Below are positions 19,738 through 64,000 of a stretch of 64,000 nt of DNA, one piece after another. The position numbers and the translations under genes were made by a program. The notes under the pieces are model-generated. The model made no database searches. It was not told the DNA's origin and saw only the letters and a list, made by a program, of their open reading frames with translations. The stretch is from positions 276,550 to 340,549 of the forward strand of contig JAQUSJ010000001.1 in the NCBI GenBank assembly GCA_028715175.1, given 5' to 3'. This DNA comes from Candidatus Daviesbacteria bacterium (GTDB taxonomy: Bacteria > Patescibacteriota > Microgenomatia > Daviesbacterales > UBA10151). The stretch's first letter is position 1. Each line of letters begins with the position of its first letter.

Positions 19738-20823
19738 TTGATGAAAGCAATTATACCAACAGGTGGCCGTGGTACCAGAATGCGGCCATTAACTTTTTCT
19801 ACTAATAAGCATTTTATTCCGATTGCAAACAAACCGTTAATTTTTTACCCGATAGAAAAAATTGCAGATACAGGTATTAAAGACATTGCGATTACTTATA
19901 ATTTGGGCGGGTTAGATGAAGTGCAGACGATATTGGGAGATGGCAGCAAATGGGGTTTAAAATTCACATATATTTTGCAGGAGAAACCTTTAGGCCTTGC
20001 CAATATCGTAGAAGTTTGTGAGGATTTTCTTGCAGGCAGTCCTTTTTTATTTCATCTGGGAGACAATATTTTTGTAGACGGTATAAGACAAGCATTTGAT
20101 TATTTTGTAAAGAAAAAACCCAATGGGCTTGTTACGATGCTCCACCATCCTGAAAACAGAAGGATGGGAGTGCCTTTCTTTGATAAACAAAATAAATTAT
20201 TAAAATATGTAGAAAAGCCGGAAAATCCTCCACACGATTTCGCAATTCCTGGTTTGTATTTTGCAGATTCAAATTTCTTTAAATGTTTCAAGGGGCAAGA
20301 CAGGATTAAACCATCAGCTAGAGGGGAATTTGAAATTCCGTCTGCATTTCAATGGATGATTGATCATGGGTTTAATGTGGAGGTTATTGAATACAGCGGC
20401 AAATGGTTGGATCCTGGTAAATTTGATGATTGGCTGGATGCAAATGAATATCTTCTGAATCGCGATCTACAGGTAAACACAGAAAGTAAGATTGATCCGA
20501 CTTCCAGAATCGAAGGAAAGGTTTCAATAGGCGAGCATGCCGAGATACGAAGGTCTAAACTTAACGGTCCTGTCATAATAGGAGATAATGTTATAATAGA
20601 AAACTCGGAAATTGGCCCCTTTGCCTCGATAGGAAACGATTGCGAAATTTTAAATAGCAAAATAAAAAGGAGTGTTTTGATGGATGGAGTGAGAGTGAGC
20701 GGAGTCGCAAATCACCCGATTGAAGATAGTTTAATAGGGACAGATAGCGAAATTGCCGGAGCAGATGGTAGAAGTGCAAAAACCAGCCTTTTTGTTGGGG
20801 AAAAGTGTAAAATACAAATATGA
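19738..20823 (+). CDS. rfbA: Glucose-1-phosphate thymidylyltransferase-like sugar nucleotidyltransferase with C-terminal left-handed beta-helix extension
   Basis: N-terminal MKAIIPTGGRGTRMRPLT (RmlA G-x-G-T-R). C-terminal ~100 aa of hexapeptide repeats (IGEHAEI, IGDNVII, IGPFASIG, IGTDSEIAG). Stop overlaps the rfbB start. Confidence 0.8.
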   Translation: MMKAIIPTGGRGTRMRPLTFSTNKHFIPIANKPLIFYPIEKIADTGIKDIAITYNLGGLDEVQTILGDGSKWGLKFTYILQEKPLGLANIVEVCEDFLAGSPFLFHLGDNIFVDGIRQAFDYFVKKKPNGLVTMLHHPENRRMGVPFFDKQNKLLKYVEKPENPPHDFAIPGLYFADSNFFKCFKGQDRIKPSARGEFEIPSAFQWMIDHGFNVEVIEYSGKWLDPGKFDDWLDANEYLLNRDLQVNTESKIDPTSRIEGKVSIGEHAEIRRSKLNGPVIIGDNVIIENSEIGPFASIGNDCEILNSKIKRSVLMDGVRVSGVANHPIEDSLIGTDSEIAGADGRSAKTSLFVGEKCKIQI

Positions 20824-21830
20824 TTCTTCTGGTTACTGGAGGAGCCGGTTTTATCGGTTCAAACTTCATTCATTATTGGTTAAAGAATCATGCAGATGAT
20901 CGGATTGTTAATCTGGATACTTTAACTTATGCAGGCCATTTAGAAAGCCTCAAAGATATATCAGATAATCCTAATTATCAATTTATAAAAGGAGATATTA
21001 CAAACCCCGAAGATGTAAAAAGGGCAATGGATGGAGTGGATATTATTGTTCACTTTGCCGCGGAATCTCATGTTGATAGATCCATAGTTGATCCGCTTAC
21101 TTTTGTTCGAACTAATGTATTGGGAACAGCGCTGCTTTTAAATACGGCATTAGATTTGGGAGTTAAAAGATTTCATCATGTCTCAACAGATGAGGTTTAT
21201 GGAGAGCTTGGACCAGATGACCCTCCTTTTACAGAAGAGACCCTTTATGCTCCGCGTACCCCTTATGCTGCATCAAAAGCAGGTTCTGATCATTTGGTCA
21301 GAGCTTATTTTGAAACCTATGGTTTGCCTATTACAATTTCAAATTGTGCAAATAACTACGGCTTCTTTCATGATCCGGAAAAGTTAATTCCCAGATTTAT
21401 AACTAATTTACTAGAAGGAAAAAAGGTGCCTTTGATGGGAAAAGGGGAAAATATCAGGGAATGGCTGCATGTAGAGGATCATGCTTCGGCAATAGATTTT
21501 GTTTTACAAAAAGGAGAAATTGGGGAAACATATTTAATTGAAGGTGAGGAAAAAACTAATATGGAAATAACAAAAATGCTGCTTGAGATTTTAGGTTTGG
21601 ATGAATCAATGATTGAATTTGTGGGTCATCGGTTAGGACATGATTTCCGTTACGCTATAAATGGTGAAAAACTCCGGAGCTTAGGCTGGGAAAGAAAGCA
21701 TTCTCTTGCAGAAGATCTGTCTAAAGTAGTCTTATGGTATAAGACTAATGAATGGTGGTGGAAACCTCTAAAAGAGGGGAGGCCAAACATTGATCGCAAT
21801 GCACAAAAATCTTATAAGCAAAGCTTGTAA
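20820..21830 (+). CDS. rfbB: dTDP-glucose 4,6-dehydratase
   Basis: MILLVTGGAGFIGSNF, HFAAESHVDRS and YAASKAGSDHLV (YxxxK), as in RmlB. 336 aa. Confidence 0.9.
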   Translation: MILLVTGGAGFIGSNFIHYWLKNHADDRIVNLDTLTYAGHLESLKDISDNPNYQFIKGDITNPEDVKRAMDGVDIIVHFAAESHVDRSIVDPLTFVRTNVLGTALLLNTALDLGVKRFHHVSTDEVYGELGPDDPPFTEETLYAPRTPYAASKAGSDHLVRAYFETYGLPITISNCANNYGFFHDPEKLIPRFITNLLEGKKVPLMGKGENIREWLHVEDHASAIDFVLQKGEIGETYLIEGEEKTNMEITKMLLEILGLDESMIEFVGHRLGHDFRYAINGEKLRSLGWERKHSLAEDLSKVVLWYKTNEWWWKPLKEGRPNIDRNAQKSYKQSL

Positions 21831-21864
21831 ATTTTGTTTGCAAGCTGCGCTTACAAACTTGTTT

Positions 21865-22416
21865 ATGGACCATAAACTTATTAAAGCAACATCAATCCCA
21901 GGACTGTTAGTATTGGAAAGACCAATACTTACGGACGAACGGGGATTTTTTAGAGAAATTTTCCATATTGATGAAATAGAAGAAACTTTGAATATTGAGT
22001 TTAAAGGCTTACAAATGAATCATGCTCATTCTAAACCTTCGGTAATGCGGGGAATTCATGCAGAAAATTGGAATAAGATAATTTATCCGGTTAATGGACA
22101 AGTTTTCGTGGCGATTGTTGATATTAGAGCAGATTCCTCAACTTTTGGTAAGATGGAAACATTTACAATCAACGATCAAAACAGGATTGCCTTATTTGTT
22201 TCCAAAGGTTTGGCTAATTCTTATTGTATTACCGGCAGTACACCAGTGGACTACATCTACCTAGTTGATGCTTATTACGATGGTTCAGATACCAGGGCAA
22301 TTGCCTGGGATGATCCTGATTTAAATATAAATTGGCCGATTAAAAATCCTATTATCTCCGAGAGGGATAAAAATAATCCGACACTGCGGGATCTATTTCC
22401 CGAAAAATTCAAATGA
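21865..22416 (+). CDS. rfbC: dTDP-4-dehydrorhamnose 3,5-epimerase (start chosen at MDHKLIKATS; the ORF track extends to 21790)
   Basis: IPGLLVLERPILTDERGFFREIF and RGIHAENWNKIIYPVNG, as in the RmlC cupin. 183 aa from this start. Confidence 0.8.
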   Translation: MDHKLIKATSIPGLLVLERPILTDERGFFREIFHIDEIEETLNIEFKGLQMNHAHSKPSVMRGIHAENWNKIIYPVNGQVFVAIVDIRADSSTFGKMETFTINDQNRIALFVSKGLANSYCITGSTPVDYIYLVDAYYDGSDTRAIAWDDPDLNINWPIKNPIISERDKNNPTLRDLFPEKFK

Positions 22417-23321
22417 TGAATTCAAAAGTATTAATCTTTGGGGGAAACGGTTTGGTAGGATCAAAATTTATCCAGATACATTCTCGGGCTTTTGAAATAA
22501 AAGCCCCTCTTGTTTCAGAGATAGATATATTAAATAAAGATCAACTTTTAAAATTTGCTCAAGATTTTGCGCCGGATACAATCATTAATTTTGCAGCATA
22601 TACTCAAGTTGAAAGCGCCGAAGCCCAAAAAGGAGATAAAGGCGGAATTTGTTATCAAATAAATGCGGTCGGAGCAAAAAATGTGGCGGATGTATGCAAG
22701 GAAATGGGAAAGAAATTGATACATATTTCAACGGAATATGTATTTGACGGAACAAAAGCGGAGAGTCCTTATACAGAAGAAGATAAGCCAAATCCAATCA
22801 ATTGGTATGGGCAGACCAAGTATGCAGGGGAGCAATTTGTTTTCGAAAGCGGTTGCGCTGCAACCATAGCTAGAATTTGTATGCCGTTTAGTCCTTTTTA
22901 TGAACTCAAAACAGATGTTGCCAGATTTTTCCTCAAGGAGTTGCAGAATGGCAGGAGAGTAAAAGCGATTGAAAATCAGCGAGTCACGCCGACTTATGTG
23001 AACTATATTGTTAATGCTTTGAAGGTGTTAGTTGAATCGCAGACAGAAGGACTTTATCATATTAGTAGTACGGATAGTGTAACTCCACAAGAGTTTGCCA
23101 AAACCATTGCCGAAATTTTTCAATTAAACTATTTTCTGATTTCTCCGATCAGTCTTGATGAATATAACAAAAGTAAGACTGTTAAACTCCTGCAGTATTC
23201 CTGGTTAAATCCCGCAAAATTCGAGGAGCAGTTCGGAGAAGGAGTGTTGCATACTGTTGAAGAAGGATTAACGCTTTTCAAAAAAGAGATTGACGAGAAA
23301 GGGGAAAATCGGCTATATTAA
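22413..23321 (+). CDS. rfbD: dTDP-4-dehydrorhamnose reductase
   Basis: VLIFGGNGLVGSKF Rossmann start; YGQTKYAGEQ (YxxxK); ~300 aa, typical of RmlD. Start overlaps the rfbC stop (ATGA). Confidence 0.8.
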   Translation: MMNSKVLIFGGNGLVGSKFIQIHSRAFEIKAPLVSEIDILNKDQLLKFAQDFAPDTIINFAAYTQVESAEAQKGDKGGICYQINAVGAKNVADVCKEMGKKLIHISTEYVFDGTKAESPYTEEDKPNPINWYGQTKYAGEQFVFESGCAATIARICMPFSPFYELKTDVARFFLKELQNGRRVKAIENQRVTPTYVNYIVNALKVLVESQTEGLYHISSTDSVTPQEFAKTIAEIFQLNYFLISPISLDEYNKSKTVKLLQYSWLNPAKFEEQFGEGVLHTVEEGLTLFKKEIDEKGENRLY

Positions 23322-23370
23322 GCATAGTTAATATTTGGTTAATATTTCTAAATAAGACAGAAACAAAAAT

Positions 23371-24387
23371 ATGGCAGATAAAAAAAGAGCTTTTATAACA
23401 GGAATTTCGGGACAAGACGGTTCATACTTAAGCGAGTTCTTATTAGATAAGGGTTATGAGGTAGCAGGTTTAGTCCGCAGGAATGCGGTTTTGGACTTGG
23501 GTAATATTAATGAATTAAAAGATGAAGTAAAAATCTATTATGGAGATTTGCATTCACCCGAATCTATTGCGCTAGCTCTGTATGATTTTAAACCAAATGA
23601 AATATATAATTTGGCTTCTCTTTCTTCTCCGCTTGGATCATTTAGCGATAAACTGGGAGCGATTATGGTTACAGGAGTAGGTGCTCTTAATGTTTTTGAA
23701 AGAGCTAAACAGGTTGTTCCTGATGCTAAAATTTATCAAGCATCAACGTCTGAGATGTTTGGTGCACCAAAGCAGGTTCCTCAGGATGAAAATACCCCTT
23801 TTAATCCTGCTAATCCCTATGCAGCAGCCAAAGAATTTGCACATAGGATGGCTGTGATTGCAAGGAATGATAAAAAAGAACCCCAATTTATTTCCTGCGG
23901 AATCCTTTTCAATCATGAAAGCCCCAGACGCGGTTTAAACTTTGTGACAAGAAAAATCACTGTTGCCGTAGCCTGTATCAAGAACGGCAAGAGGGAAGGA
24001 ATACCTTTAAATGAGATAGGCGAACCGATTATAAAAAATGGAAAAGTAAAATTGGGAGATTTGGATGCCAAGAGAGATTGGGGTTATGCTCCTGATTATG
24101 TGGAGTTAATGTGGATGATGTTGCAACAAGATCAGGCAGATGACTTTGTAGCTGCAACAGGAGAAACGCATACGGTTGGAGAGTTTGCCGAAGAAGCTTT
24201 TGCCGTTGTCGGTTTAAATTGGAAAGACTATGTTGAAATTGATCCGCATTTTATACCTCCGCTGCAAACCGGGCCGTTGTGCGGGAATGCTGCAAAAGCC
24301 AAAGAAGTTTTAGGGTGGGAACCAAAGACAAAATTTAAGGATCTGGTCAAAATTATGGTTCATGCAGACCTTGCTAAATTCTCCTAG
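23371..24387 (+). CDS. gmd: GDP-mannose 4,6-dehydratase
   Basis: AFITGISGQDGSYLSEFLLDKGYEVAGLVRR, ASTSEMFG and YAAAKEFAH, as in Gmd. 338 aa. Confidence 0.85.
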   Translation: MADKKRAFITGISGQDGSYLSEFLLDKGYEVAGLVRRNAVLDLGNINELKDEVKIYYGDLHSPESIALALYDFKPNEIYNLASLSSPLGSFSDKLGAIMVTGVGALNVFERAKQVVPDAKIYQASTSEMFGAPKQVPQDENTPFNPANPYAAAKEFAHRMAVIARNDKKEPQFISCGILFNHESPRRGLNFVTRKITVAVACIKNGKREGIPLNEIGEPIIKNGKVKLGDLDAKRDWGYAPDYVELMWMMLQQDQADDFVAATGETHTVGEFAEEAFAVVGLNWKDYVEIDPHFIPPLQTGPLCGNAAKAKEVLGWEPKTKFKDLVKIMVHADLAKFS

Positions 24388-25594
24388 TTTCCGCTACAAT
24401 CGATCCATGTTAAAAATAGTTTCCGTTGTTCTCCCTACTTATAACGAAAAAGCAAATATCGAAAAAACGGTTGAGAAGGTTTTTGAACAAGAAAAAAATC
24501 TTCCTGGCTTTGAGATAAATGTTGTAATTGCAGACGATATCAGGTCTTCTGATGGAACAGAACAGATTGCAAAAGAATTAACGAAGAAGAACAAAAGAGT
24601 GCATTTTATAAAGGTAGAACCGGGTTTGGGTGTCGGATTAATAAAAGGTCATCAATATGCTTTGGATAATTTGCACCCCAGTATTCTGGCTCAACTTGAT
24701 GCAGACGGACAGGTTGAACCTGACGTACTGGTAAGGCTTGTCGGTGCGATAGAAGATGGTTATTCGCTGGCAATCGGCTCCAGATTTGTCAGCGGAGGGA
24801 AAAATAAGCTCTCTTTCATAAGAAGACTTTTTACTTATGGGGCATCAGCCTTTTTCCGAATAATGGTAGGCCCATGTGATATTAAAGAAGTTACGAATTC
24901 TGCAAGAGCATTGACCCCTGCTTTGTTTAAGAAGATTAATTTAGAAAAATTGCCATGGAGAGAGCAAACCTTTATTGTTCAACCGGCTTTCTTGCATGAG
25001 GCAATTTTGGCTGGCGCCACATATAAAGAAGTACCCTTAGTTTTTAAAAATCGTTTGGAAGGATATTCTAAGAATAAAGTTTTTAACTATACATATGATG
25101 TTATTACTTATTGTATTGATGCAAGTTTAAATAAGCTGGGAATTCATGTTAGATTTTTCTATATAACTCGCCGGATCAAGACACTGGTAAAGTTTAGTTT
25201 AGTCGGGTTTGTCGGAACAATGGTAGATTTCTTATTCTATAAAATATTTATTAATTTTTTCTTATTAACCCCGGCAATGTCTAAAGGTTTTTCTGCCGAA
25301 ATTGCTATTGTGAATAATTTTATACTTAATAATTATTGGACATTCCGCTATCGGAAAACAAAAACAAACATTTGGCAAAAATTTGGTATTTTTAACTTGG
25401 TGAGTTTTGGTGGACTCTTGATTGGAGTGTTGATTGTTAAATTTTTACATATGACTTATGGTGACGGATTTGTTTATCCTTTCGGTCGTCACGTTGCTTA
25501 CAATAATTTTTATTTTTTTGCTACCATTCCACCAGTCATGCTTTGGAATTTTTTAATTAACCATCTCGTGACTTGGCGTAACCAGGAGGACTAG
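24362..25594 (+). CDS. GT2 polyprenyl-phosphate sugar synthase (Dpm1/GtrB-like) with C-terminal GtrA-like 4-TM membrane domain
   Basis: VVLPTYNEKANIEKTV..VVIADD...D-x-D (GT2 DxD). C-terminal FSLVGFVGTMVDFLFYKIF...NNFILNNYWTFR matches the GtrA family. Confidence 0.75.
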   Translation: MQTLLNSPSFRYNRSMLKIVSVVLPTYNEKANIEKTVEKVFEQEKNLPGFEINVVIADDIRSSDGTEQIAKELTKKNKRVHFIKVEPGLGVGLIKGHQYALDNLHPSILAQLDADGQVEPDVLVRLVGAIEDGYSLAIGSRFVSGGKNKLSFIRRLFTYGASAFFRIMVGPCDIKEVTNSARALTPALFKKINLEKLPWREQTFIVQPAFLHEAILAGATYKEVPLVFKNRLEGYSKNKVFNYTYDVITYCIDASLNKLGIHVRFFYITRRIKTLVKFSLVGFVGTMVDFLFYKIFINFFLLTPAMSKGFSAEIAIVNNFILNNYWTFRYRKTKTNIWQKFGIFNLVSFGGLLIGVLIVKFLHMTYGDGFVYPFGRHVAYNNFYFFATIPPVMLWNFLINHLVTWRNQED

Positions 25595-26760: not shown

Positions 26761-26811
26761 ACTTACTTAAATCATAGCAGAAGTTTAAGAGATTATGCTA
26801 CACTTTAATTC

Positions 26812-29720: not shown

Positions 29721-29748
29721 ACAATTTAAACGGGTAAGTTGGTATAAT
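29718..29748 (+). promoter_or_regulatory. Promoter candidate with extended -10 (TGgTATAAT) immediately upstream of the ArnT-like gene
   Basis: TAGACA 29718-29723, 19-nt spacer, TG 29740-29741, TATAAT 29743-29748. The GTG start at 29755 is only 7 nt downstream (possible leaderless or very short leader). Confidence 0.35.
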
Positions 29749-29754
29749 GTTAAG

Positions 29755-47384: not shown

Positions 47385-47385
47385 A

Positions 47386-54607: not shown

Positions 54608-54617
54608 ACTGTGAAAT

Positions 54618-55388
54618 ATGGGAACAGGTAAAGTTGCAAAGGTTGTAATAGTAATGCCTGCATATAATGCGGCAAAGACAATTAAGAGTACTTATGAAGA
54701 GATCCCTCAAGAATTCAGGAAGAATATTATCCTGGTGGACGATAGAAGCCATGATAACACTGTTGAAATTGCGCGAAATCTAGGCATTAGGGTGTTTTCC
54801 CATACACATAATTTAGGATACGGAGGCAATCAAAAAACTTGTTATTATGAGGCTTTAAAAGATGATCCAAGCGTTGTTGTGATGCTGCATCCTGATTATC
54901 AGTATGATGCTAAATTAATTGGAGAATTAATTAGGCCGATTCAAGATGGCCGTTATGATTTTATGTTTGGTTCAAGGATTCAGAGCCGGCAATCGGCTCT
55001 GTCAGGAGGTATGCCTAAAATCAAATATTCTATAAACAGAATAGTTTGCATCTTGGAAAATATTTTACTTGATGTTAATTTTACCGAGCATTTTTCCGGT
55101 TTTCGGGCATATTCTGTTAAACTTCTTAAAACAGTTCCTTTTCAAAAATTTTCTAATGATTTTGTTTTCGATCAACAGATGACAATTTCAGCTTTAAGCT
55201 ACGGGTTTAAGATCGGAGAGATACCTATCCCTACAAGATATCACGAAAAGGCTTCCTCCATACAATTTCTTAAAGGCGCTAAGTTTATTTTGGATACATT
55301 TTGGTGGATAATGATTTATAGGTTTCACAAATTAGGTTTAATAAAAAGTGCAATTGTTAATATAAAACCGACTATAGATAAAAGCTGA
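54618..55388 (+). CDS. GT2 glycosyltransferase (Dpm1/GtrB-like)
   Basis: VVIVMPAYNAAKTIKSTYEEIPQEF..ILVDDRSHDNT..HPDYQYD. 3' end overlaps the convergent gene by 64 nt. Confidence 0.7.
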   Translation: MGTGKVAKVVIVMPAYNAAKTIKSTYEEIPQEFRKNIILVDDRSHDNTVEIARNLGIRVFSHTHNLGYGGNQKTCYYEALKDDPSVVVMLHPDYQYDAKLIGELIRPIQDGRYDFMFGSRIQSRQSALSGGMPKIKYSINRIVCILENILLDVNFTEHFSGFRAYSVKLLKTVPFQKFSNDFVFDQQMTISALSYGFKIGEIPIPTRYHEKASSIQFLKGAKFILDTFWWIMIYRFHKLGLIKSAIVNIKPTIDKS

Positions 55389-57007: not shown

Positions 57008-57024
57008 AAATTGCTAACATTAAT

Positions 57025-58689
57025 TTGGTAGTATCAATGAGATATAAAATATATACAGCACTCTTTCTAATTGTAACTTTATCATTTTTTTTACGATTCT
57101 GTAAGGTTACGGAAGATCCTCCAGCTTTGAATTGGGATGAAGTTTCTATAGGATATAATGCTTATTCTATTTTGAAAACAGGAAAGGATGAGTGGAACCA
57201 GCCGTTCCCAATACATTTTAAAGCCTACGGTGAATATAAACTACCGGTACAAATTTATGCGAGTATCCCGGGAATATATATTTTTGGACTTAATGAGTTG
57301 GGAGTAAGGATTACCCCGGTAGTGTATGGGACGTTAACCGTATTGTGTATGTTTTTTTTAGGCAGAGTGCTTTTTGAAAACGAATTGGCTGGTTTAGCTT
57401 CGGCATTTTTACTTGGGATCTCTCCTTGGCATATTCATTTAACAAGAGCATCTTTTGAATCGTCGTTGGCGACATTTTTTGTCACTGCCGGAATTTGGTT
57501 TTTAGTGAAAGGATTTAAAGATCAGAAATGGTTTATCATTTCTGTGATACCATTTGCTTTGTCAGTCTTTACTTACAATTCCGCCAGAATTTTTACCCCA
57601 CTATTTTTAATTGCCATACTATTTCTCTATAGAAAAAGCTTAATTAAATTTAGAAAAGTAGCGATTATTTCTGTGGTATTTTTTACTATTCTTTTGTTGC
57701 CGCTTATTCCGTATTTATTTAGCGGTGAGCGGAGCGCCCGCTACAAGTTGGTTAGTATTACAGATGATCCGGGACTTATTCCGCGGATTAATGAAAATCG
57801 GGGCAATTCGAAATTACCCCAACCCTTGCCGAGATTTGTTCATAATAAAGTTACATATATTGCATTTTATTTCACCAGGAATTATCTTTCTCACTTCACT
57901 CCGCAATTCTTATTTATATCCGGCGCTCCCCATAAACAACACCATGTTCAGAATATGGGAGAACTTTACTATTTCCAAGCCCCGTTTCTCTTTTTGGGCC
58001 TTTATGCTCTTTTCCGTTTAAAAAATCCCTTTAAGGGATTTCTATTCGCTTGGATACTACTGGCATTTATTCCTGTGGCAACAACAGGAGATAGTATTCC
58101 GCATGCTTTGAGGACATTAATTGCAGCCCCTTTTTATCAGCTAGTTTCCGGGTTAGGTTTTGTTTTTAGTTTAAGATGGTTTAAAAAGTTTTCTAAAGTT
58201 TGGAAAATTATCTCCATTGCAGTATTCGTAACAGTAATAATAACTGGTTTGGGTTATTACCTGTATCAATATTACAAGGTTTATCCTGTTGCGTATTCCA
58301 GAGATTGGCAGTATGGATATGAACAGGTAGTAGATTATATTGGCAAGCATAAGGATGAATACGATGAAATTATTTTTACCAGGCATTATGGGGAACCGCA
58401 TATGTTTACCCTGTTTTATCTTAAGTTTGATCCGGTAAAATACCAAAATGATCCAAATTTAGTTAGATTTGAAACATATGATTGGGTAAGGGTTTTAAAG
58501 TTTAGTAATTTTTACTTTCCGGATTTAGGAGATAAAGGGACGCAGTTTACAGATATCGTAAAAGCAAATCCCGGGAAGAAACTGTTATTTATTGGCAGGG
58601 GAGAAGATTTTCCTAAAGAAATTCCCAGGCTTTTATCTGTTAAATTCTTAAATGGTGAAAATGATTTTGATATTGTGGAAGTAAGATGA
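57025..58689 (+). CDS. GT-C glycosyltransferase, PMT/ArnT-like subfamily B paralog (start more likely at MRYKIY, 57037)
   Basis: LNWDEVSIGYNAYSILKTGKDEWNQPFPIHFKAYGEYKLPVQIY; VRITPVVYG; ISPWHIHLTRASFES; HFTPQFLFISGAPHKQHHVQNMGELYYF. Confidence 0.7.
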   Translation: MVVSMRYKIYTALFLIVTLSFFLRFCKVTEDPPALNWDEVSIGYNAYSILKTGKDEWNQPFPIHFKAYGEYKLPVQIYASIPGIYIFGLNELGVRITPVVYGTLTVLCMFFLGRVLFENELAGLASAFLLGISPWHIHLTRASFESSLATFFVTAGIWFLVKGFKDQKWFIISVIPFALSVFTYNSARIFTPLFLIAILFLYRKSLIKFRKVAIISVVFFTILLLPLIPYLFSGERSARYKLVSITDDPGLIPRINENRGNSKLPQPLPRFVHNKVTYIAFYFTRNYLSHFTPQFLFISGAPHKQHHVQNMGELYYFQAPFLFLGLYALFRLKNPFKGFLFAWILLAFIPVATTGDSIPHALRTLIAAPFYQLVSGLGFVFSLRWFKKFSKVWKIISIAVFVTVIITGLGYYLYQYYKVYPVAYSRDWQYGYEQVVDYIGKHKDEYDEIIFTRHYGEPHMFTLFYLKFDPVKYQNDPNLVRFETYDWVRVLKFSNFYFPDLGDKGTQFTDIVKANPGKKLLFIGRGEDFPKEIPRLLSVKFLNGENDFDIVEVR

Positions 58690-60212
58690 AATTTTCAAGC
58701 ATTAATTTATTCCTGGCTTTAATTGTGTTTCTCTTTCTATTTACCAGATTCTTTAAACTTTCTGAAATTCCTCCCTCTGTTTATTGGGATGAAGCTTCAA
58801 TTGGTTATAACGCTTATTCAATAGCCGAAACCGGTAAAGACGAATGGGGTGAATTTCTTCCCATTCATTTTAGAGCTTTTGGAGAATTTAAGTTACCTGT
58901 TTATATTTATGTTACCGCAGCAAGCGTTAAAGTTTTTGGATTAAATGAGTTTTCGGTAAGGTTGCCGGCAGTATTATTTTCTTTGGGGACAGTTTTTTTA
59001 ATCTTTTTTCTGGCAAGGAAATTGTCGGATAATGCAACAGTAGGTTTATTAAGTAGCTTTTTTATGACTGTTTCGCCCTGGTTTTTTATTTTCTCAAGAA
59101 CAGGCTATGAAGCGACGGCAGGGTTGATGTTTTATGTATTGGCAATATATTTATTTCTACAAAATAATAGAAACCTCTGGTACATCTTTTTTTCTATCTT
59201 GAGTTTTATCTTATGTGCGTATAGTTATAATAGTTTTAGGATAGTGGTTCCTCTTACAATTTTGATATTAGTTGCGCACAGTTTAAGGAACCCTATTGAT
59301 ACTTTTAAAAAAGGTATTTTACCCTTAGCGCTTTCCGTAATTTTCTTAGCTCTAAGCGCAGTCCCGATTTACAGATTGTATGTATATGATGCGGGTGTTT
59401 CCCGTCTTCAAGCAGTTAGCACAACAAGTTCAACTTTTATCCAAAATTATCTCTCACATTTTAATCCAAACTTTTTATTTTTGCGGGGAGATAAAAATTT
59501 AAGAAGTCAACAAACAGGTTTCGGGCAACTTTATTTTCCTGATTTGCTGCTTTTAACATTGGGAGTTTGGTATATAACTGTCAGTAAGTCAAAATACAAA
59601 ATTTTACTCTTTGCATTGTTGCTGTTAGGATTTATCCCGGCTGCCATTACAAAAGAGGCTCCGCACGCCTTGCGAACCATTTCTGTGGTTCCATTTCTTT
59701 CCATCATCTCTGCGCTTGGAGTAGTTCAATTTTGGCAATGGGTTAAAAATAGAAAACTTTTCAATTTGATAGTTGTAATAATTTTCCTTATCTTTTTTAG
59801 TAACTATTTCTTTAGTTTTTTAAATACCTATCCCGTGGAGTCGTCAAAAGACTGGCAATACGGTTATAAAAAGATATTTACAGATTATAAAAATAATTTT
59901 GATAAATATGATCAGGTGATAATTTCCGATGAATATGCTCAGCCGTATATTTTTGCTCTGTTTTATCTAAAAATTGATTCCAACAAATTTAGGCAGAGTG
60001 TAGTTAGAAATAACGTTGACCAATGGGGATTCTCTACTGTATCAAGTTTTGATAAATTTGAGTTTGGCAAGATAGATAAATTATTAAACAAAGACTCAAA
60101 AAATACTTTAATCTTTGCTTCCGCTAAAGAGCTGCTTCCTGATTTGAACCCCTCAGAGATTATTAATTTTCTGGATGGAGAAATTGCTTTCCGGATGTAT
60201 AAGTTAAAATAA
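58686..60212 (+). CDS. GT-C glycosyltransferase, PMT/ArnT-like subfamily B paralog
   Basis: VYWDEASIGYNAYSIAETGKDEWGEFLPIHFRAFGEFKLPVYIY; VRLPAVLFSLG; VSPWFFIFSRTGYEA; HFNPNFLFLRGDKNLRSQQTGFGQLYFP. Confidence 0.7.
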   Translation: MKFSSINLFLALIVFLFLFTRFFKLSEIPPSVYWDEASIGYNAYSIAETGKDEWGEFLPIHFRAFGEFKLPVYIYVTAASVKVFGLNEFSVRLPAVLFSLGTVFLIFFLARKLSDNATVGLLSSFFMTVSPWFFIFSRTGYEATAGLMFYVLAIYLFLQNNRNLWYIFFSILSFILCAYSYNSFRIVVPLTILILVAHSLRNPIDTFKKGILPLALSVIFLALSAVPIYRLYVYDAGVSRLQAVSTTSSTFIQNYLSHFNPNFLFLRGDKNLRSQQTGFGQLYFPDLLLLTLGVWYITVSKSKYKILLFALLLLGFIPAAITKEAPHALRTISVVPFLSIISALGVVQFWQWVKNRKLFNLIVVIIFLIFFSNYFFSFLNTYPVESSKDWQYGYKKIFTDYKNNFDKYDQVIISDEYAQPYIFALFYLKIDSNKFRQSVVRNNVDQWGFSTVSSFDKFEFGKIDKLLNKDSKNTLIFASAKELLPDLNPSEIINFLDGEIAFRMYKLK

Positions 60213-60215
60213 AAA

Positions 60216-61847
60216 ATGAAGAAAGAAATTAAGATATTATTGTTTTTAATTATTTTATTGGCCACTTTTTTGAGAGTTTATAGGCTGGATCAAGTTCCAC
60301 CATCTTTAAACTGGGATGAAGTAGATGCAGGTTATAATGCATACACTATCGCTAATTGGGGTAGGGATGAATGGGGAAAATTTCTCCCTTTGGTTTTTAC
60401 TTCATTTAGAGACGATAAGCGCCCTATTCATATTTATCTAACAGCACCGGTAGTTAAGTTATTCGGGTTATCTGATTTTACAACCAGACTGCCTGGAGCG
60501 ACCGTAGGCGTTTTAAGCGTAATAGTAATTTTTTACCTTGCGCTAATTTTATTTAAAAGTGATCTTATTGCTTTGCTATCAGCATTATTTTTGGCAATTT
60601 CCCCTTATCATTTACAATTTTCAAGAGGCTTATGGGAGATAAACTTTGCTCTTTTTTTCTTTATGCTGGGGTTGTTACTGTTTTATCTGGCGCTGCAAAA
60701 AAAAGGTTGGTTTATTAGTCTGTCATTTTTTAGTTTCGGATTAAGTATTTTATCTTATCATTCATCAATAATTGTTGTACCTCCCGTAGTTTTCGTGCTT
60801 GTAGTACTTTATATTAAAAAATTACTTAAACTCTCTTTTAATTTCTATTTGGGTTTAAGCTTAATGATTATTCTTGCAATTTTTATAATTTATGACCCAA
60901 GGATTTTGGGGATGGCACGTGTGCAACAAACCCAATTTGGCAAAGATATAATTGAGAAAACTCAGATTTTCCAAAGGACTAAAAATCATATGCTTGGTTT
61001 AGGAGAGATTACTCTTAATCAATATTTTTCGCATTTTACCCCCCAATATCTTTTTATCTCCGGTGATCAAAATCCAAGAAATTCTGTTAAAACACAAGGA
61101 GAATTTTATAAAATTGATGCATTATTTATTTTTGTAGGATTGGTTTGTTTATTATTATTAAGATCAAAAATTTCTGCGGTTGTATTTACATGGTTGTTGC
61201 TTTCTCCTATACCATCCAGTCTGGTTAGTCATGCTCCTAATGCAACCAGGGCGTTATTCATGATGGGCAGTTTAAATCTTATTGCGGCATTTGGTGCAGG
61301 GAATATAATCAACCGGTTTAAAGGTAGCTCTAAAGTTGCTATTTTAGTAGCAATATTAATTTTACTTGGTATTCAATTTTATTCTTATTCTGATTATTAT
61401 TATAATTCTTATCCAAAAAAAGATGCCATTGAATGGCAGTACGGCATGAAACAATCAGCAGAGTTTGTAAAATCTCATCCGGAATACACTCAGGTGTATG
61501 TTACAGACATCCGTTCACAACCGTATATATTTTATCTTTTTTACTTAAAAACTCCTTTACCTGAATATTTAAATGCCGTAGTCTATAATAGATTAGAAGA
61601 AAGTAAAAGTTATAATACAGTTTCGTATTTTGAGAACTTTTATCTTACAGAAGAAGGTCAACGAAAAAGGATTAATTTTTACTTTGGAGGATGGGACAGC
61701 GTGGAAAGCGTCCCGGATAGAAATGTGTTATATGTGCTGAGTCCCAGCCAATATGATGGATTAAGACGTCGTTCATCGTTTGATGTTAAGAAGATAATTT
61801 ACTATCCTGATGGAGGAGTCGCATTTTATCTGGTAAGTGGTATATGA
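60216..61847 (+). CDS. GT-C glycosyltransferase, PMT/ArnT-like subfamily B paralog
   Basis: LNWDEVDAGYNAYTIANWGRDEWGKFLPLVF; TRLPGATVGVL; ISPYHLQFSRGLWE; HFTPQYLFISGDQNPRNSVKTQGEFYKI. Confidence 0.7.
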   Translation: MKKEIKILLFLIILLATFLRVYRLDQVPPSLNWDEVDAGYNAYTIANWGRDEWGKFLPLVFTSFRDDKRPIHIYLTAPVVKLFGLSDFTTRLPGATVGVLSVIVIFYLALILFKSDLIALLSALFLAISPYHLQFSRGLWEINFALFFFMLGLLLFYLALQKKGWFISLSFFSFGLSILSYHSSIIVVPPVVFVLVVLYIKKLLKLSFNFYLGLSLMIILAIFIIYDPRILGMARVQQTQFGKDIIEKTQIFQRTKNHMLGLGEITLNQYFSHFTPQYLFISGDQNPRNSVKTQGEFYKIDALFIFVGLVCLLLLRSKISAVVFTWLLLSPIPSSLVSHAPNATRALFMMGSLNLIAAFGAGNIINRFKGSSKVAILVAILILLGIQFYSYSDYYYNSYPKKDAIEWQYGMKQSAEFVKSHPEYTQVYVTDIRSQPYIFYLFYLKTPLPEYLNAVVYNRLEESKSYNTVSYFENFYLTEEGQRKRINFYFGGWDSVESVPDRNVLYVLSPSQYDGLRRRSSFDVKKIIYYPDGGVAFYLVSGI

Positions 61848-62614
61848 CAAAAGTTTCAGTAGTCCTAGCTGTTTTTAACGAAGAAAGCAATTTGAAAACT
61901 TGCCTAAACTCTGTAAAGGATTTAGCTTGGGAGATAGTTGTTGTTGATGGTGGATCTAAAGATAAAACTTTAGATATTGCCAAAGAATTTGATGCAAAAA
62001 TTATTCGTACAAACAATCCCCCCATTTTTCACATAAATAAAAATAAAGCAATCGATGCATCTTCTGGAGACTGGATTTTACAGCTTGATGCTGATGAAAT
62101 AGTGACTAAAGGGCTGGTGGAAGAAATTATAAAAGTAACAGCCCTAAAATCCAACGTTAATGGATATTGGATTCCCAGAAAGAATTTTTTCTTGGGTAGA
62201 TTTTTAACCAAAGGAGGTCAGTATCCTGATTATACCTTGAGGCTTTACAGGCGGGGATTTGGCAGGCTTCCGGCAATCGATGTACACGAACAGGCGGTTG
62301 TGGAAGGTAAAGTAGGTTTTTTAAAAAACGACCTTTTACACCTAAGAGACAAAAGCTTTTCGATATATCTTGAGAGGTTTAACAGATATACGGATTTATT
62401 CTCATCTCAACTGAAAGAAGCCGGTATCAAAAAAGGCATTTTTACTTTTATAGATTTTCTGTTGTTTAAACCTTTATTTTGGTTTATTAAAACTTACTTT
62501 AGACATAGGGGTTATGTGGATGGTTTTCCCGGCTTTGTTTTTGCGTTATTTTCTTCGCTGCGGTTTCCTGTAGCTTTTTTAAAATTTTGGATTCACTATG
62601 AAAATCGCGATTAA
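61844..62614 (+). CDS. GT2 glycosyltransferase (WaaE/KdtX-like)
   Basis: VSVVLAVFNEESNLKTCLNSVKDLAWEIVVVDGGSKDKT..LQLDADE; ERFNRYTDLFSSQ, as in 43875-44783. Confidence 0.75.
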   Translation: MTKVSVVLAVFNEESNLKTCLNSVKDLAWEIVVVDGGSKDKTLDIAKEFDAKIIRTNNPPIFHINKNKAIDASSGDWILQLDADEIVTKGLVEEIIKVTALKSNVNGYWIPRKNFFLGRFLTKGGQYPDYTLRLYRRGFGRLPAIDVHEQAVVEGKVGFLKNDLLHLRDKSFSIYLERFNRYTDLFSSQLKEAGIKKGIFTFIDFLLFKPLFWFIKTYFRHRGYVDGFPGFVFALFSSLRFPVAFLKFWIHYENRD

Positions 62615-63674
62615 TTATTTACCGGTAAAAAATGCTCATAAAGTAAGAGGTATAGGATATTATACTAACCTTCTGCTTGAGTTTTTAAAACAAGACACTT
62701 CGATCCAGATCCAAGAATTTATTAACTTGTCAGAAGTTAAAGATGCGAATCTTGTCCATTATCCATGGTTTGATCTTTTTTTTCACACTCTGCCTATCAA
62801 AAGACGACTACCTACTGTTGTGACTATCCATGATGTGATGCCGCTTGTTTTTCCTGAACATTATCCGGTAGGCCTAAGAGGTAAAATTAATTTTATCCTG
62901 CAAGAGATAGCATTAAAAAGTTGCAACTATATTATTACGGATTCCAAGGTATCCAAAATAGATATTATGAAACATCTAAAGATTGAAGATGAAAAGATTA
63001 CAGTAATTCCTCTGGCCTCAGATCCGACATTTGAAATTTTAAGCAATGATACGAAACTACTGCATATAAAACGGCAATACCGCTTGCCTGATCAATTTTT
63101 ACTCTATGTGGGAGATGCCAACTGGGTTAAAAACTTACCCTTTTTGATAGAAGGCTTCCGGCAATTGATCAAATCCCCCGGTTTTAAAGACATCAAGTTA
63201 GTTTTGGTTGGTGGAGTATTCTTAAAAGATGTAGAAAATATTAATCATCCCGAACTTCAAAGTTTAAAATCCGTGAATCAATTAATCAAACAATATAAGC
63301 TTGAAGCAAATATCATTCGACCGGGACAACTTAAGGACGACGATTTGGTATCTTTCTACAATCTGGCAACGATGTATGTCCAGCCCTCTGTCTATGAAGG
63401 CTTCGGATTGCCTGTCTTGGAAGCTTTCGCTTGCGGCACTCCGGTTATTTCATCAAATAGAGGGAGTTTACCGGAGGTCGGCGGGCAAGCAGCAGTTTAT
63501 TTTGATCCTGACGATCTTAAACAATTTGTTTCTATCATGACGGAATTGCTAGAAAATAAATCTTTATTGGATAAGTTATCCAGGTTGGGATTGCAACAAG
63601 CTGCTAAATTTTCCTGGAAAAAAGTAGCAGAGCAAACAAAATCGGTTTATTTGAAAGCGCTGAAAAATGATTAA
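62598..63674 (+). CDS. GT4 (glycosyl transferase group 1) glycosyltransferase
   Basis: EGFGLPVLEAFACGTPVISSNRGSLPEVGG (E-x7-E). 358 aa. Confidence 0.75.
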   Translation: MKIAINYLPVKNAHKVRGIGYYTNLLLEFLKQDTSIQIQEFINLSEVKDANLVHYPWFDLFFHTLPIKRRLPTVVTIHDVMPLVFPEHYPVGLRGKINFILQEIALKSCNYIITDSKVSKIDIMKHLKIEDEKITVIPLASDPTFEILSNDTKLLHIKRQYRLPDQFLLYVGDANWVKNLPFLIEGFRQLIKSPGFKDIKLVLVGGVFLKDVENINHPELQSLKSVNQLIKQYKLEANIIRPGQLKDDDLVSFYNLATMYVQPSVYEGFGLPVLEAFACGTPVISSNRGSLPEVGGQAAVYFDPDDLKQFVSIMTELLENKSLLDKLSRLGLQQAAKFSWKKVAEQTKSVYLKALKND

Positions 63675-64000
63675 CCGATTAAACTTCAAATCATCAATTT
63701 TTAAGATTCTAATGTTGTTTTTAGCATGGCGATTTATTTTGGCGATTATTTCTTTTCTTGCTATAAATTTTCTCCCTTTGGGATATAAAGATCGTTTCCT
63801 TGGAGGCGGTCCTACAAATTATCAATTATCACCGGAATTTTTTTCCTGGGCAAATTTCGATGGCGAGCACTACCTGTCTATTGCTATATTTGGCTACAAG
63901 CATTTAGAACAGGCTTTTTTCCCAATTTATCCTTTTTTAATATCAATTTTCGCACGACCTGACCCCTACAATTTACTTGTATCTCTGATTAATTCCACGC
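63667..64000 (+). CDS. PIG-V/GT76-like (DUF2029-type) mannosyltransferase, 5' portion (runs off window end)
   Basis: ATG at 63667 overlapping the previous stop. WANFDGEHYLSIAIFGYKHLEQAFFPIYPF matches the 'WDxEhYlxIAxxGY' motif of PIG-V-like GT-C enzymes. Confidence 0.5.
   Translation, partial: MINRLNFKSSIFKILMLFLAWRFILAIISFLAINFLPLGYKDRFLGGGPTNYQLSPEFFSWANFDGEHYLSIAIFGYKHLEQAFFPIYPFLISIFARPDPYNLLVSLINST

Follow-up and report, generated by a model that had tools for sequence, protein, structure and literature searches.

The window examined here, a 64-kb stretch of a 743,708-bp contig in a Candidatus Daviesbacteria (CPR/Patescibacteria) MAG, is occupied from position 19738 to its last nucleotide by a tightly packed run of glycosylation genes, which are named below by their first coordinate and lie on the plus strand unless marked (-). 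The span of 44,263 nt from 19738 to 64000 holds 34 open reading frames (ORFs), 33 of them complete and one represented by its 5' end, and the ORFs total 44,203 nt (overlaps counted twice). Thirty-two of the 34 lie on the plus strand, the widest intergenic gap is 91 nt, and at 13 of the 33 junctions the neighbouring ORFs overlap by 1-8 nt. The co-directional packing described in the first-pass annotation is borne out, as is the glycosylation super-locus itself, and each gene start that was quoted coincides with an ORF. Such packing is consistent with co-transcription, from which we infer operon structure. Although first described as ending at 64000, the locus runs on for at least 3.2 kb in the L013 sequence, where the gene at 63667 is followed by a second Wzx gene, a GT2 gene and the beginning of another gene of the 36135 type.

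The first genes of the locus encode a long-form RmlA (glucose-1-phosphate thymidylyltransferase, 19738..20823; TIGR01208 336 bits, cut-off 320, with Pfam NTP_transferase and LbH matches), RmlB (dTDP-glucose 4,6-dehydratase, 20820..21830; TIGR01181 432 bits, cut-off 365), RmlC (dTDP-4-dehydrorhamnose 3,5-epimerase, 21790..22416; PF00908 146 bits, TIGR01221 127 bits against a cut-off of 156) and RmlD (dTDP-4-dehydrorhamnose reductase, 22413..23321; PF04321 201 bits, TIGR01214 205 bits against 224). A Gmd-like GDP-mannose 4,6-dehydratase follows (23371..24387; PF16363 326 bits, TIGR01472 317 bits over its full length against 415), and GalE, a UDP-glucose 4-epimerase, is encoded upstream at 8072..9001(-) (TIGR01179 275 bits, cut-off 262). 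RmlC, RmlD and Gmd fall just below the NCBIfam equivalog cut-offs while scoring strongly in Pfam, and in each case the assigned family is the best full-length one. By these scores the earlier identification of rfbABCD (rmlABCD), gmd and galE holds, and dTDP-rhamnose synthesis and a Gmd-like enzyme are shown, at the level of family assignment, to be encoded by the locus.

Seven GT2 and two GT4 enzymes are present in the window, as first counted. The protein from 24362..25594 is a GT2 (PF00535 84 bits) fused to a GtrA/DPMS-type 4-TM domain (PF04138, GtrA_DPMS_TM, 66 bits); in NCBIfam it comes nearest to PgfS, PglI, AglJ, Dol-P hexose transferase and PpgS without reaching the cut-off of any of them, and we regard it as a candidate polyprenyl-phosphate hexose synthase. 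Two soluble GT2 enzymes resemble, respectively, ArnC and PgfS (28980..29720; PF00535 99.5 bits, PgfS 76 bits, ArnC 71 bits, under the cut-offs) and PpgS, AglJ and Dol-P hexose transferase (54618..55388; PF00535 75.7 bits, AglJ 73 bits and PpgS 62 bits over full length, again under the cut-offs), and an ArnC-like GT2 forms the N-terminus of 26812. Sequence comparison shows polyprenyl-phosphate sugar synthases to be the closest relatives of all four, in keeping with the earlier proposal that these enzymes load sugars on polyprenyl phosphate; however, their scores to ArnC, PgfS, PpgS and AglJ lie far under the equivalog cut-offs, and for this reason some may be ordinary Leloir transferases. Beside these four stand five further enzymes whose family matches show them to be of Leloir type: a cytoplasmic GT2 with one C-terminal TM helix (43875..44783; PF00535 73.8 bits, orthologs 57-68% identical), two other GT2 enzymes (44786..45589, PF00535 64 bits, orthologs 67-72% identical; 61844..62614, PF00535 84 bits, orthologs 69-72% identical) and two of the GT4 family (45590..46663, PF00534 82 bits, orthologs 65-68% identical; 62598..63674, PF00534 105 bits, ortholog 72% identical). 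The label 'WaaE-like', initially given to some GT2 enzymes, found no specific match in its support. The Wzx-like flippase is identified as a MOP-type protein (34621..36135; PF13440 170 bits, NF007773 152 bits).

The 22 GT-C-type genes cover 55% of the window (35.5 kb), and their membrane proteins fall into at least five paralog groups. Sixteen score at or above the Pfam threshold of PMT_2 or PTPS_related (1664, 10564, the 26812 C-terminus, 29755, 31291, 32945, 39620, 41241, 42175, 47386, 49687, 51351, 52952, 57025, 58686 and 60216), and for six the assignment comes from paralogs, from comparison of profiles, from the annotation of orthologs or from a predicted fold (5590(-), 9039, 25591(-), 36135, 55325(-) and 63667), which together match the initial estimate of about 22. 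This count includes 41241, which lacks the catalytic loop, and leaves out 46668 and 49112.

All four GT-C genes claimed upstream of 19738 are placed in this superfamily: 1664..3214 (PMT_2; PF13231 50.3 bits) and three members of group C, namely 5590..7227(-), assigned by paralogy and profile comparison with no Pfam match (37% identical to 9039, 30% to the 26812 C-terminus), 9039..10562 (PF13231 21.1 bits, below cut-off, with a group C profile comparison) and 10564..12087 (PF13231 30.9 bits). Group A has nine members: 39620..41248 (PF13231 38.4 bits; invariant D32-E33), 42175..43833 (PF13231 41.5 bits, PF02366 27.6 bits), 47386..49020 (PF13231 26.8 bits; 46% identical to 49687), 49687..51354 (38.8 bits), 51351..52964 (28.1 bits; orthologs 41-44% identical), 52952..54607 (40.3 bits; 48-54%), 57025..58689 (38.7 bits, PF02366 32 bits), 58686..60212 (47.5 bits; 62-66%) and 60216..61847 (50 bits; 46-51%). 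The best conserved is 57025, with orthologs 73-83% identical and the NCBI name 'GT family 39'. Group B (PTPS_related) comprises 31291..32952 (PF10131 26.9 bits, reaching the cut-off), 32945..34654 (PF10131 40.2 bits; 35% identical to 31291) and, by paralogy, 55325..57007(-), whose PF10131 score of 22.7 bits is below cut-off and which is 28-29% identical to the other two over ~520 aa (E ~1e-48). Comparison with group A by hhalign gave 99.2% for group C and 94.5% for group B. The remaining enzymes include 29755..31278 (PF13231 42.6 bits, PF02366 37.9 bits; 'ADE' motif in loop 1), which like 31291 and 32945 had been called GT-C and reaches the Pfam cut-off; a short PMT_2-type protein of 389 aa and ~12 TM helices (25591..26760(-)), whose own Pfam match is weak (E 0.004) and whose orthologs (66-87% identical) carry precomputed PMT_2/PMT matches and are called 'glycosyltransferase family 39' by NCBI; and the N-terminus of a 387-aa PIG-V-like (Mannosyl_trans2) protein (63667..64000, running on), for which the full-length sequence was taken from L013. 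This last protein has no Pfam match of its own; orthologs 62-72% identical bear PF04188, in agreement with its original GT-C assignment.

Pfam, profile comparison, ortholog annotation and two structure predictions together place the polytopic proteins in GT-C families. An AlphaFold model of 57025 (pLDDT 85, pTM 0.85) was compared with the PDB by Foldseek, and its best 33 matches are all GT-C enzymes (ArnT TM-score 0.55). The loop-1 D-E pair is invariant across the nine group A paralogs and their orthologs, and an acidic motif in this first outer loop also occurs in groups B and C, 29755 and 26812. The possibility that the GT-C assignments are compositional artefacts is excluded because ten of these proteins, when reversed, gave no Pfam matches at E<=0.01.

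Four details of the locus are new. First, 26812..28983 encodes a fusion of a GT2 (PF00535 93 bits, residues 7-168) with a GT-C domain (PMT_2; PF13231 50 bits, residues 298-451) whose D264-E265 motif directly follows the first TM helix. This fusion is kept in L002, L004, L006 and L017, and its domain content supports a protein that would both make a donor and use it. Second, the 1162-aa protein from 36135..39623 has no Pfam match (some orthologs bear PF12979) and is predicted by AlphaFold and Foldseek to consist of a signal anchor, a hydrolase/deacetylase-like barrel (residues ~26-466), a GT-C-fold membrane domain and a C-terminal soluble domain. In this model, which is of moderate confidence only (pLDDT 76), the N-terminal domain matches 3lm3 (E 5e-10) and CE4/ArnD, and the C-terminal half matches STT3 (5e-7), PglB and AftA, in accord with the first-pass GT-C call. 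Wzx always precedes the 36135-type gene in the relatives compared. Third, the 310-aa protein from 41241..42173 (PF13231 27.7 bits) covers only positions 91-141 and 210-401 of the group A profile, is missing the DE loop and C-terminal domain, and is probably non-catalytic, judging from its sequence; it is kept in L001-L003, L006 and L009. Fourth, a family of ~220-aa 'half-GT-C' membrane proteins is represented by 46668..47384 (238 aa; no Pfam match, group A profile positions 183-378, E 1e-15), the partner of 47386, and by 49112..49690 (192 aa; 43% identical to 46668, positions 191-377, E 8e-8), the partner of 49687. At E<=1e-10 the 46668 family numbers 260 representative clusters, of which almost all are 200-260 aa long, and in one member a GT2 is fused to the half-GT-C part. 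Thus the array of GT-C enzymes first drawn from 39620 to 61847 stands for its group A and B members, whereas 41241 is loop-less and 46668 and 49112 are half-length and, on present evidence, not transferases; all three are probably non-catalytic partner subunits.

Taken together, nucleotide-sugar genes, synthase-like GT2 enzymes, a GtrA-type domain, Wzx and GT-C enzymes cover all the classes of component that make up known multi-component transmembrane glycosylation systems (PMC8035078; see also PMC11127046 and PMC5964476), and the pathway logic first proposed is borne out at the family level. We consider it reasonably probable that this is a core envelope-glycan locus of Candidatus Daviesbacteria, in which lipid donors loaded by GT2 enzymes are flipped and then used by many GT-C enzymes. 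Dpm1/ArnC-like GT2 enzymes at the cytoplasmic face would put single sugars on polyprenyl phosphate, GT2 and GT4 enzymes would build a lipid-linked oligosaccharide, and the GtrA-type domain and Wzx flippase(s) would carry the lipid-linked sugars to the outer face. There, ~19 catalytically competent, non-redundant GT-C enzymes would each add one defined sugar or linkage, building or branching a growing surface glycopolymer, or modifying surface proteins. The 36135 protein would probably take the flipped intermediate from Wzx, and processing of the glycan would fall to its outer hydrolase/deacetylase-like domain. The window yielded neither a phosphoglycosyl transferase for initiation nor a Wzy polymerase nor a Wzz/chain-length regulator.

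There are ~5 GT-C enzymes per donor synthase, which suggests that a few lipid-linked donors are common to many transferases. Mycobacterial lipomannan, lipoarabinomannan and arabinogalactan assembly follows a similar shared-donor logic, and the likeness is one of logic only because Emb/Aft family members and decaprenyl-phospho-arabinose genes are not present. Characterised Firmicutes, in contrast, have 1-3 GT-A/GT-C pairs (PMC8035078) that decorate polymers one-to-one. On the model of their GtrABC, CsbB-GtcA-YfhO and Csd pairs, the window might hold many independent systems, each GT-C or small set decorating a separate pre-made polymer (teichoic-acid-like, secondary cell-wall polysaccharide or peptidoglycan) with a side-chain sugar, and no single assembly line. 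Three adjacent GT2/GT-C pairings (26812 itself by fusion, 28980/29755 and 54618/55325) fit such an arrangement, and a Wzx-type flippase such as GacK can serve C55-P-sugar (PMC8035078). Nevertheless, four donor-synthase candidates for 22 GT-C enzymes are far from the 1:1 ratio of known systems, the nine group A paralogs stand in unbroken runs with no GT2 of their own, and genes for teichoic acid (TagB/F, LtaS) were not seen in the window, and so we judge this explanation unlikely, though deserving of serious attention.

Protein O-glycosylation, which we hold to be more doubtful still, would have PMT-like GT-C enzymes act on pilins, S-layer proteins or Ser/Thr-rich proteins of the surface; the paralogs would differ by protein target or extend O-glycans. 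PMT_2 and PMT are indeed the best Pfam families and GT39 the NCBI name, the structural matches of 57025 include Pmt4 and Pmt1-Pmt2, and both this protein and 36135 have OST-like fold matches. Furthermore, 12521-13780(-) encodes a secreted, membrane-anchored protein of 419 aa with long Ser/Thr/Pro-rich linkers that adjoins 9039 and 10564. However, PMT_2 serves as a catch-all for GT-C enzymes, and ArnT and enzymes that modify polysaccharides fall under it too (PMC8035078). The closest solved sequence relative is ArnT rather than PMT, MIR domains were not found, and a polysaccharide is indicated by the presence of rml, Wzx, GT2 and GT4 genes. To our knowledge, a single Pmt suffices in bacteria with Pmt-type O-mannosylation, which also counts against this explanation.

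Comparison of sequences indicates that locus position and gene order are conserved across the Daviesbacteria lineage. Synteny with the Daviesbacteria contig JACPDA010000004.1, whose locus has 19 GT-C-type genes, extends over at least 53 kb in the order prfB-CAP-rml-...-Wzx2, and gene order around 36135 is also kept in 10 further genomes. Paralogs within the genome are 22-46% identical, whereas 1:1 orthologs in other Daviesbacteria are 41-83% identical; we therefore reject recent amplification in favor of an old, non-redundant enzyme set. Some content is variable: the 54618 and 55325 pair is specific to the window, the 46668/47386 module is duplicated in it and placed elsewhere in L016, group B has 2-4 copies per genome, YfhO and PIG-M-like genes occur in other genomes, and an IS200-type transposase lies inside the locus of one relative. 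Because the array is partly variable, not every member would belong to a fixed pathway. This variation and the transposase could suit a contingency array in which diversifying selection (evasion of phages or hosts) acts on interchangeable paralogs and only a subset is used at once, but such an array is very improbable given the closer orthologs of most paralogs, the long-range gene order, and a search that found no homopolymer tracts, simple-sequence repeats, near-identical DNA repeats or inverted repeats of the invertible-promoter type.

Descriptions of the CPR group credit it with next to no glycan biosynthesis. CPR genomes contain 15 CAZy genes each on average, and the high density of transferases first noted holds against this mean as well as against the few pairs of Firmicutes. 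Under the core envelope-glycan reading that we favor, more than half of the 64-kb window would be given over to about 22 sugar-attaching membrane enzymes that act outside the cell, a surprising share for a CPR bacterium with an ultra-small genome.

A mechanical map of open reading frames (ORFs) recovered all of the gene starts given by the first-pass annotation, which had read positions 19738-64000 of the window as a locus for extracytoplasmic glycosylation. This interval holds 34 ORFs, 33 of them complete and one represented by its 5′ end where it leaves the window, and 32 of the 34 lie on the plus strand. Their lengths sum to 44,203 nt, with overlaps counted twice, against a span of 44,263 nt; overlaps of 1-8 nt occur at 13 of the 33 junctions, and the largest intergenic gap is 91 nt. 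Where ORFs seem to overlap by 13-41 nt, uncertainty over the start codon is the probable cause. Genes are named here by their start coordinate, with (-) marking the minus strand. The overlaps at the two convergent junctions, 4 nt between 24362 and 25591(-) and 64 nt (55325-55388) between the 3′ ends of 54618 and 55325(-), are real provided that both ORFs are genes, because stop codons are fixed. Scans for promoters and terminators were uninformative, since promoter-like sites were fewer than the shuffled expectation and the hairpins were weak and positioned within genes, and Rfam and tRNA scans returned no matches.

Together, 22 GT-C-type genes occupy 35.5 kb, or 55% of the window. The first-pass annotation had counted about 22 such genes and had set profile searches as their test, and the polytopic proteins do place in GT-C families, 16 directly and six through other evidence. 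Each of the 16 has a sequence that itself scores at or above the Pfam gathering threshold for PMT_2 or PTPS_related; the latter profile, PF10131, belongs to the GT-C clan. The remaining six are assigned by paralogy, hhalign comparison, Pfam matches of orthologs or predicted fold. Specifically, 5590(-) and 9039 belong to a paralog group (C) that hhalign relates to the profile of the largest group (A, nine paralogs) at 99.2%, and 55325(-) is paralogous over its full length to 31291 and 32945, the other members of group B, for which the corresponding hhalign value is 94.5%. The value for 25591(-) against group A is weak (11%), and this protein is placed by orthologs, 66-87% identical, that carry PMT_2/PMT matches and the NCBI name ‘glycosyltransferase family 39’; reading it as a Wzy polymerase or ligase is unsupported given this PMT_2/GT39 annotation of its orthologs. 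Protein 36135 is included because a GT-C fold is predicted for its C-terminal half. Finally, 63667 is the 5′ end of a 387-amino acid protein, complete in the record that extends the window (L013), which had no match in direct Pfam and NCBIfam searches and whose orthologs, 62-72% identical, match PF04188 (PIG-V-like).

In hydrophobic, low-GC sequence the cited motifs could in principle be artefacts of composition, as the first-pass annotation had cautioned, and this explanation fails on several grounds. Reversed sequences of 10 GT-C proteins gave no Pfam match at E≤0.01, and the reversed-sequence control agrees with what motifs, orthologs and predicted folds indicate. An acidic pair in the first outer loop, D32-E33, is invariant across the nine group-A paralogs and 16 orthologs, and the nine paralogs likewise share D49 and P56. 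The equivalent acidic residue is invariant in group B (D32) and in group C (D44), and the motif takes the form ADE in 29755 and D264-E265 in 26812. Among solved structures, the nearest sequence relative of group A is ArnT (5ezm, E 7e-7). GT-C domains typically have 8-13 transmembrane helices; hydropathy profiles show 7-15 transmembrane peaks per GT-C-type protein, and these profiles together with predicted models of two proteins (57025 and 36135) point to a GT-C fold with a polytopic domain. The AlphaFold model of 57025 (pLDDT 85, pTM 0.85) returns GT-C proteins for all 33 of its best PDB matches, including STT3, AglB, PglB, ArnT, Pmt4, ALG9/12, AftD and EmbB, with a TM-score of 0.55 for ArnT.

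Pfam and NCBIfam profile searches covered all 49 window ORFs of at least 150 amino acids and also define the supporting enzymes. All four enzymes of the dTDP-L-rhamnose pathway, RmlABCD, are present and adjacent. RmlA is the long form (336 bits against an NCBIfam cut-off of 320) and RmlB is equally clear (432 against 365), and for RmlC, RmlD and Gmd the expected full-length family ranks first, slightly under the NCBIfam equivalog cut-off and strong in Pfam. GalE (8072(-)) scores 275 bits against a cut-off of 262. A CofE-like F420-0:gamma-glutamyl ligase (7212-7964 (+); PF01996, 122 bits) is also encoded, and is unexpected in a reduced CPR genome.

The searches identify seven GT2 domains (24362, the N-terminus of 26812, 28980, 43875, 44786, 54618 and 61844) and two GT4 proteins (45590 and 62598), as the first-pass annotation had counted. 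The window contains one Wzx/MOP flippase (34621; PF13440, 170 bits), with a second immediately downstream of its end, and one GtrA/DPMS-type membrane domain, fused to GT2 in 24362 (PF04138, 66 bits). A flippase of GtrA or Wzx type, as used by multi-component glycosylation systems, is therefore available through both 24362 and 34621. Four of the GT2 proteins had been called Dpm1-like. Their nearest NCBIfam families are ArnC, PgfS, PpgS, AglJ and Dol-P hexose transferase, with scores far under the equivalog cut-offs, and so the evidence for a donor-synthase role is at the level of similarity. This candidate role gains support from two domain architectures, the GT2 plus GtrA_DPMS_TM arrangement of 24362 and the GT2–GT-C fusion of 26812.

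Several proteins have unusual architectures. In 26812, a cytoplasmic ArnC-like GT2 domain is followed by one transmembrane helix and then directly by a GT-C domain with the D-E loop, an arrangement that would constitute a natural link of donor synthesis with donor use. Protein 36135 (1162 amino acids; identical to NCBI PHE48_01770) matches nothing in Pfam or NCBIfam, either whole or as two halves. Its predicted model (pLDDT 76) comprises a signal anchor, an outer barrel domain, a GT-C membrane domain and a C-terminal soluble domain. By structure matching, the barrel resembles the putative glycoside hydrolase/deacetylase 3lm3 (E 5e-10) and CE4/ArnD enzymes, and the membrane domain resembles STT3, PglB and AftA. 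Residues E96, D180, D185, E238 and E282 of the N-terminal domain are invariant, and D638 is located in the GT-C loop. Kinship with YfhO was considered and ruled out, as BLAST found no similarity between 36135 and the YfhO genes that relatives carry. The 36135 gene always comes after Wzx. Furthermore, 3.2 kb past the window end (L013, 5319-5675), a second gene starts with a domain 36% identical to the N-terminus of 36135, and because it comes after the second Wzx and a GT2, the module of Wzx plus large fusion appears to be repeated. Stand-alone paralogs of the membrane half, 660 amino acids long, occur in relatives.

Three smaller proteins, in which the first outer loop and its acidic motif are absent, might be taken for remnants of pseudogenes. 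The 310-amino acid GT-C-like protein 41241 lacks the catalytic loop and the C-terminal domain, yet it is conserved and kept in five loci, which rules out this reading. Proteins 46668 and 49112 (238 and 192 amino acids, 43% identical to each other) match only positions 183-378 of the 539-position group-A profile and are homologous to the latter half of the GT-C membrane domain alone. Immediately 3′ of each is a GT-C gene, 47386 and 49687 respectively, and these two form the most similar GT-C pair (46% identical). An orthologous pair of the 46668/47386 type exists in a related genome (L016, small protein at 11656-12333). Moreover, the 46668 family comprises 260 clusters at E≤1e-10 among 1.84 billion representative proteins, nearly all of 200-260 and typically about 220 amino acids, which argues that these half-GT-C proteins are a genuine small-protein family rather than fragments and, with the orthologous pair, excludes decay. 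One family member (P0366) is fused to GT2. According to one idea (PMC8035078), soluble GT-A enzymes can have a distinct membrane protein as their partner, and this single fusion would fit it.

The arrangement of the locus is conserved. Reads of SRR22315506 contain the same genes, and 10 other Daviesbacteria-like Patescibacteria genomes share the gene order around 36135: a GT2–GT-C fusion, a GT2, a 29755-type GT-C, two to four group-B GT-C genes, Wzx, the 1162-amino acid protein, group-A GT-C genes and a GT2-GT2-GT4 series. In GCA_016184225.1, synteny extends over at least 53 kb. The syntenic stretch starts with prfB and a CAP-domain gene, continues with rml, gmd and GT2-GtrA, reaches as far as the second Wzx, and includes 19 GT-C-type genes. 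Five records with the Patescibacteria-type locus (L004, L005, L007, L010 and L011) are titled ‘uncultured Gammaproteobacteria bacterium’, a taxonomy that looks like a placeholder or an error.

Recent tandem amplification or gene conversion is ruled out by window paralogs that are at most 46% identical. Paralog identities of 22-46%, compared with 41-83% for one-to-one orthologs in other genomes, indicate instead that the duplications are old and that each copy is under purifying selection. The sole DNA repeat family is the segment coding for the catalytic loop (61-75%). The search for near-identical DNA repeats, homopolymer tracts and simple-sequence repeats found none, and the lack of the latter two speaks against phase variation. 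G+C content is 0.30-0.35 over the GT-C array (40000-62000) versus 0.36-0.41 upstream, which we attribute to the AT-rich codons of hydrophobic membrane proteins; lineage-wide synteny of the locus speaks against recent transfer as the cause.

A smaller part of the array differs between genomes. The 54618 and 55325(-) pair of GT2 and GT-C genes is absent from the same position in two relatives, which suggests that it is an inserted cassette, and the 46668 plus 47386 module is duplicated in the window and differently placed in L016. Two relatives carry genes with no window counterpart, namely a YfhO-family GT-C of about 790 amino acids (L014 1-1159 (-); L016 1-1340 (-)) and a PIG-M-like membrane protein of 368-385 amino acids (L014 4100-5257; L016 4143-5249). 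In JACPDA010000004.1, from a related Daviesbacteria genome, the GT2-GtrA gene is separated from the 25591 ortholog by a NUDIX gene and a Y1 transposase of IS200 type (L018 11250-12397); in this locus rmlD is absent at the usual place, and RmlA is short (240 amino acids).

Which known system does this locus resemble? Like Wzx/Wzy O-antigen and capsule loci, it has rmlABCD at its 5′ end, Wzx flippases and cytoplasmic GT2 and GT4 enzymes. In contrast to those loci, GT-C genes dominate, and no WecA/WbaP-type initiator, Wzy, Wzz or ligase is recognized in the window; the 49 ORFs gave no match to Bac_transf, Glycos_transf_4, Wzy_C, O-ag_pol_Wzy or Wzz. We therefore concluded that the locus is not a classical Wzx/Wzy system, with the note that an initiating transferase, Wzy and Wzz could be located outside the window.

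The Arn pathway (ArnC GT2, ArnD deformylase, ArnE/F flippase and the GT83 GT-C ArnT) offers further parallels. ArnT is both the nearest solved sequence relative of group A and one of the top structural matches, 28980 and the 26812 N-terminus have ArnC among their best NCBIfam matches, albeit far under the family cut-offs, and the N-terminal domain of 36135 has an ArnD-type fold in its predicted model (8t0j). However, the locus has no ArnA or ArnB genes, a monoderm-type CPR cell has no lipid A, and 36135 has its deacetylase-like domain fused to GT-C and, by prediction, outside the membrane.

Multi-component transmembrane systems, including GtrA/GtrB/GtrC of Shigella and Salmonella, CsbB-GtcA-YfhO, lactococcal CsdA-F and GacI-J-K-L (PMC8035078; PMC11127046), also share features with the locus. 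They too use a GT-A/GT2 enzyme to make a polyprenyl-phosphate sugar (a role for which our locus has candidates only), a GtrA- or Wzx-type flippase, and a polytopic GT-C that often belongs to PMT_2 and has an acidic outer-loop motif, and they too can be associated with rhamnose-polysaccharide genes. In Firmicutes, known systems number one to three GT-A/GT-C pairs per genome, matched 1:1 and adding side chains (PMC8035078). The single locus described here departs from that scheme, with about 22 GT-C genes for 4-5 candidate donor synthases and long GT-C runs that lack a GT2 of their own. Neither fusion to GT-C, be it of GT2 or of the hydrolase/deacetylase-like domain, nor a free half-GT-C occurs in the systems tabulated in that work (PMC8035078). 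We know of no characterized system with either fusion or with a free-standing half-GT-C.

Mycobacterial lipomannan (LM), lipoarabinomannan (LAM) and arabinogalactan are assembled by GT-C enzymes (PimE, MptA/B/C, EmbA/B/C and AftA-D) that use polyprenyl-phosphate mannose or arabinose (PMC5964476). The likeness is one of many non-redundant GT-C enzymes drawing on few lipid-linked monosaccharide donors to build a large branched polymer outside the membrane, an outcome that we propose here from the genes. It otherwise holds at fold level only, with AftA, AftD and EmbB among the structural matches, and window ORFs have no Arabinose_trans, AftA or GT87 Pfam match. DPA pathway genes and a Ppm1-type synthase are absent from the locus, and the phylum and envelope are unrelated. 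Mycobacterial GT-C genes are dispersed over a 4.4-Mb genome, whereas the Daviesbacteria set forms one locus covering at least 6% of a 0.74-Mb contig. With about five GT-C genes per candidate donor synthase and GT-C runs without their own GT2, the shared-donor logic of the mycobacterial polymers would, by analogy, fit better than the one-to-one decoration pairs of Firmicutes.

Under such a shared-donor scheme, Dpm1/ArnC-like GT2 enzymes would place sugars on polyprenyl phosphate, and other GT2 and GT4 enzymes would assemble a lipid-linked oligosaccharide. The GtrA-type domain and the Wzx flippases would then carry lipid-linked sugars across the membrane, where about 19 catalytic GT-C enzymes could lengthen and branch a surface glycan. 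A competing view, that the locus is machinery for protein O-glycosylation, stays alive because of a 419-amino acid predicted secreted protein (12521-13780 (-)) that has a signal peptide, a membrane anchor at its C-terminus and two long linkers rich in Ser, Thr and Pro. This protein matches no Pfam family, adjoins GT-C genes 9039 and 10564, and is a possible candidate acceptor.

We advance only tentatively, and consider rather doubtful as a whole, the proposal that Daviesbacteria possess a lineage-defining heteropolysaccharide or lipoglycan, a large surface polymer that about 20 specialized GT-C enzymes assemble almost wholly outside the membrane. Its assembly would rely on undescribed designs, comprising a hydrolase/deacetylase–GT-C fusion coupled to Wzx, a fusion of donor synthase and GT-C, and a widespread half-GT-C of about 220 amino acids that would complete a heteromeric GT-C or anchor soluble GT2 donor synthases. 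To our knowledge, about 20 GT-C enzymes would be the densest complement in any genome.

Individual genes of the locus are already in GenBank, annotated as ‘GT family 39’ or ‘hypothetical’. We found no account of the locus or of a GT-C expansion in CPR bacteria in the literature searched, whose incomplete coverage leaves such an absence unproven. The class of mechanism is known; what is new is the scale, the conservation across a lineage with reduced genomes, and the protein architectures. In Patescibacteria, glycan genes apart from those for peptidoglycan and LPS have been described as ‘almost missing’ (PMC7137472), and CPR genomes average about 15 CAZy genes (PMC9166423). In contrast to this picture of reduced glycan biosynthesis, a conserved extracytoplasmic glycosylation locus here covers at least 47 kb, at least 6% of a 744-kb contig. 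We suspect that divergent GT-C genes, which make up most of the locus, may be under-counted when genomes are surveyed with CAZy or KEGG in the standard way.

Three components of the locus provide GT-C enzymology with compact natural examples of functional coupling: the fusion of GT2 to GT-C, the hydrolase-like fusion next to Wzx, and the half-GT-C partners. For the organisms themselves, the gene content would imply a complex, as yet unseen surface glycan on ultra-small cells, a candidate for roles in host attachment, phage interaction or envelope integrity. If the proposal of a large extracytoplasmic polymer is true, that polymer would be a new component of the CPR envelope and a likely mediator of host attachment.
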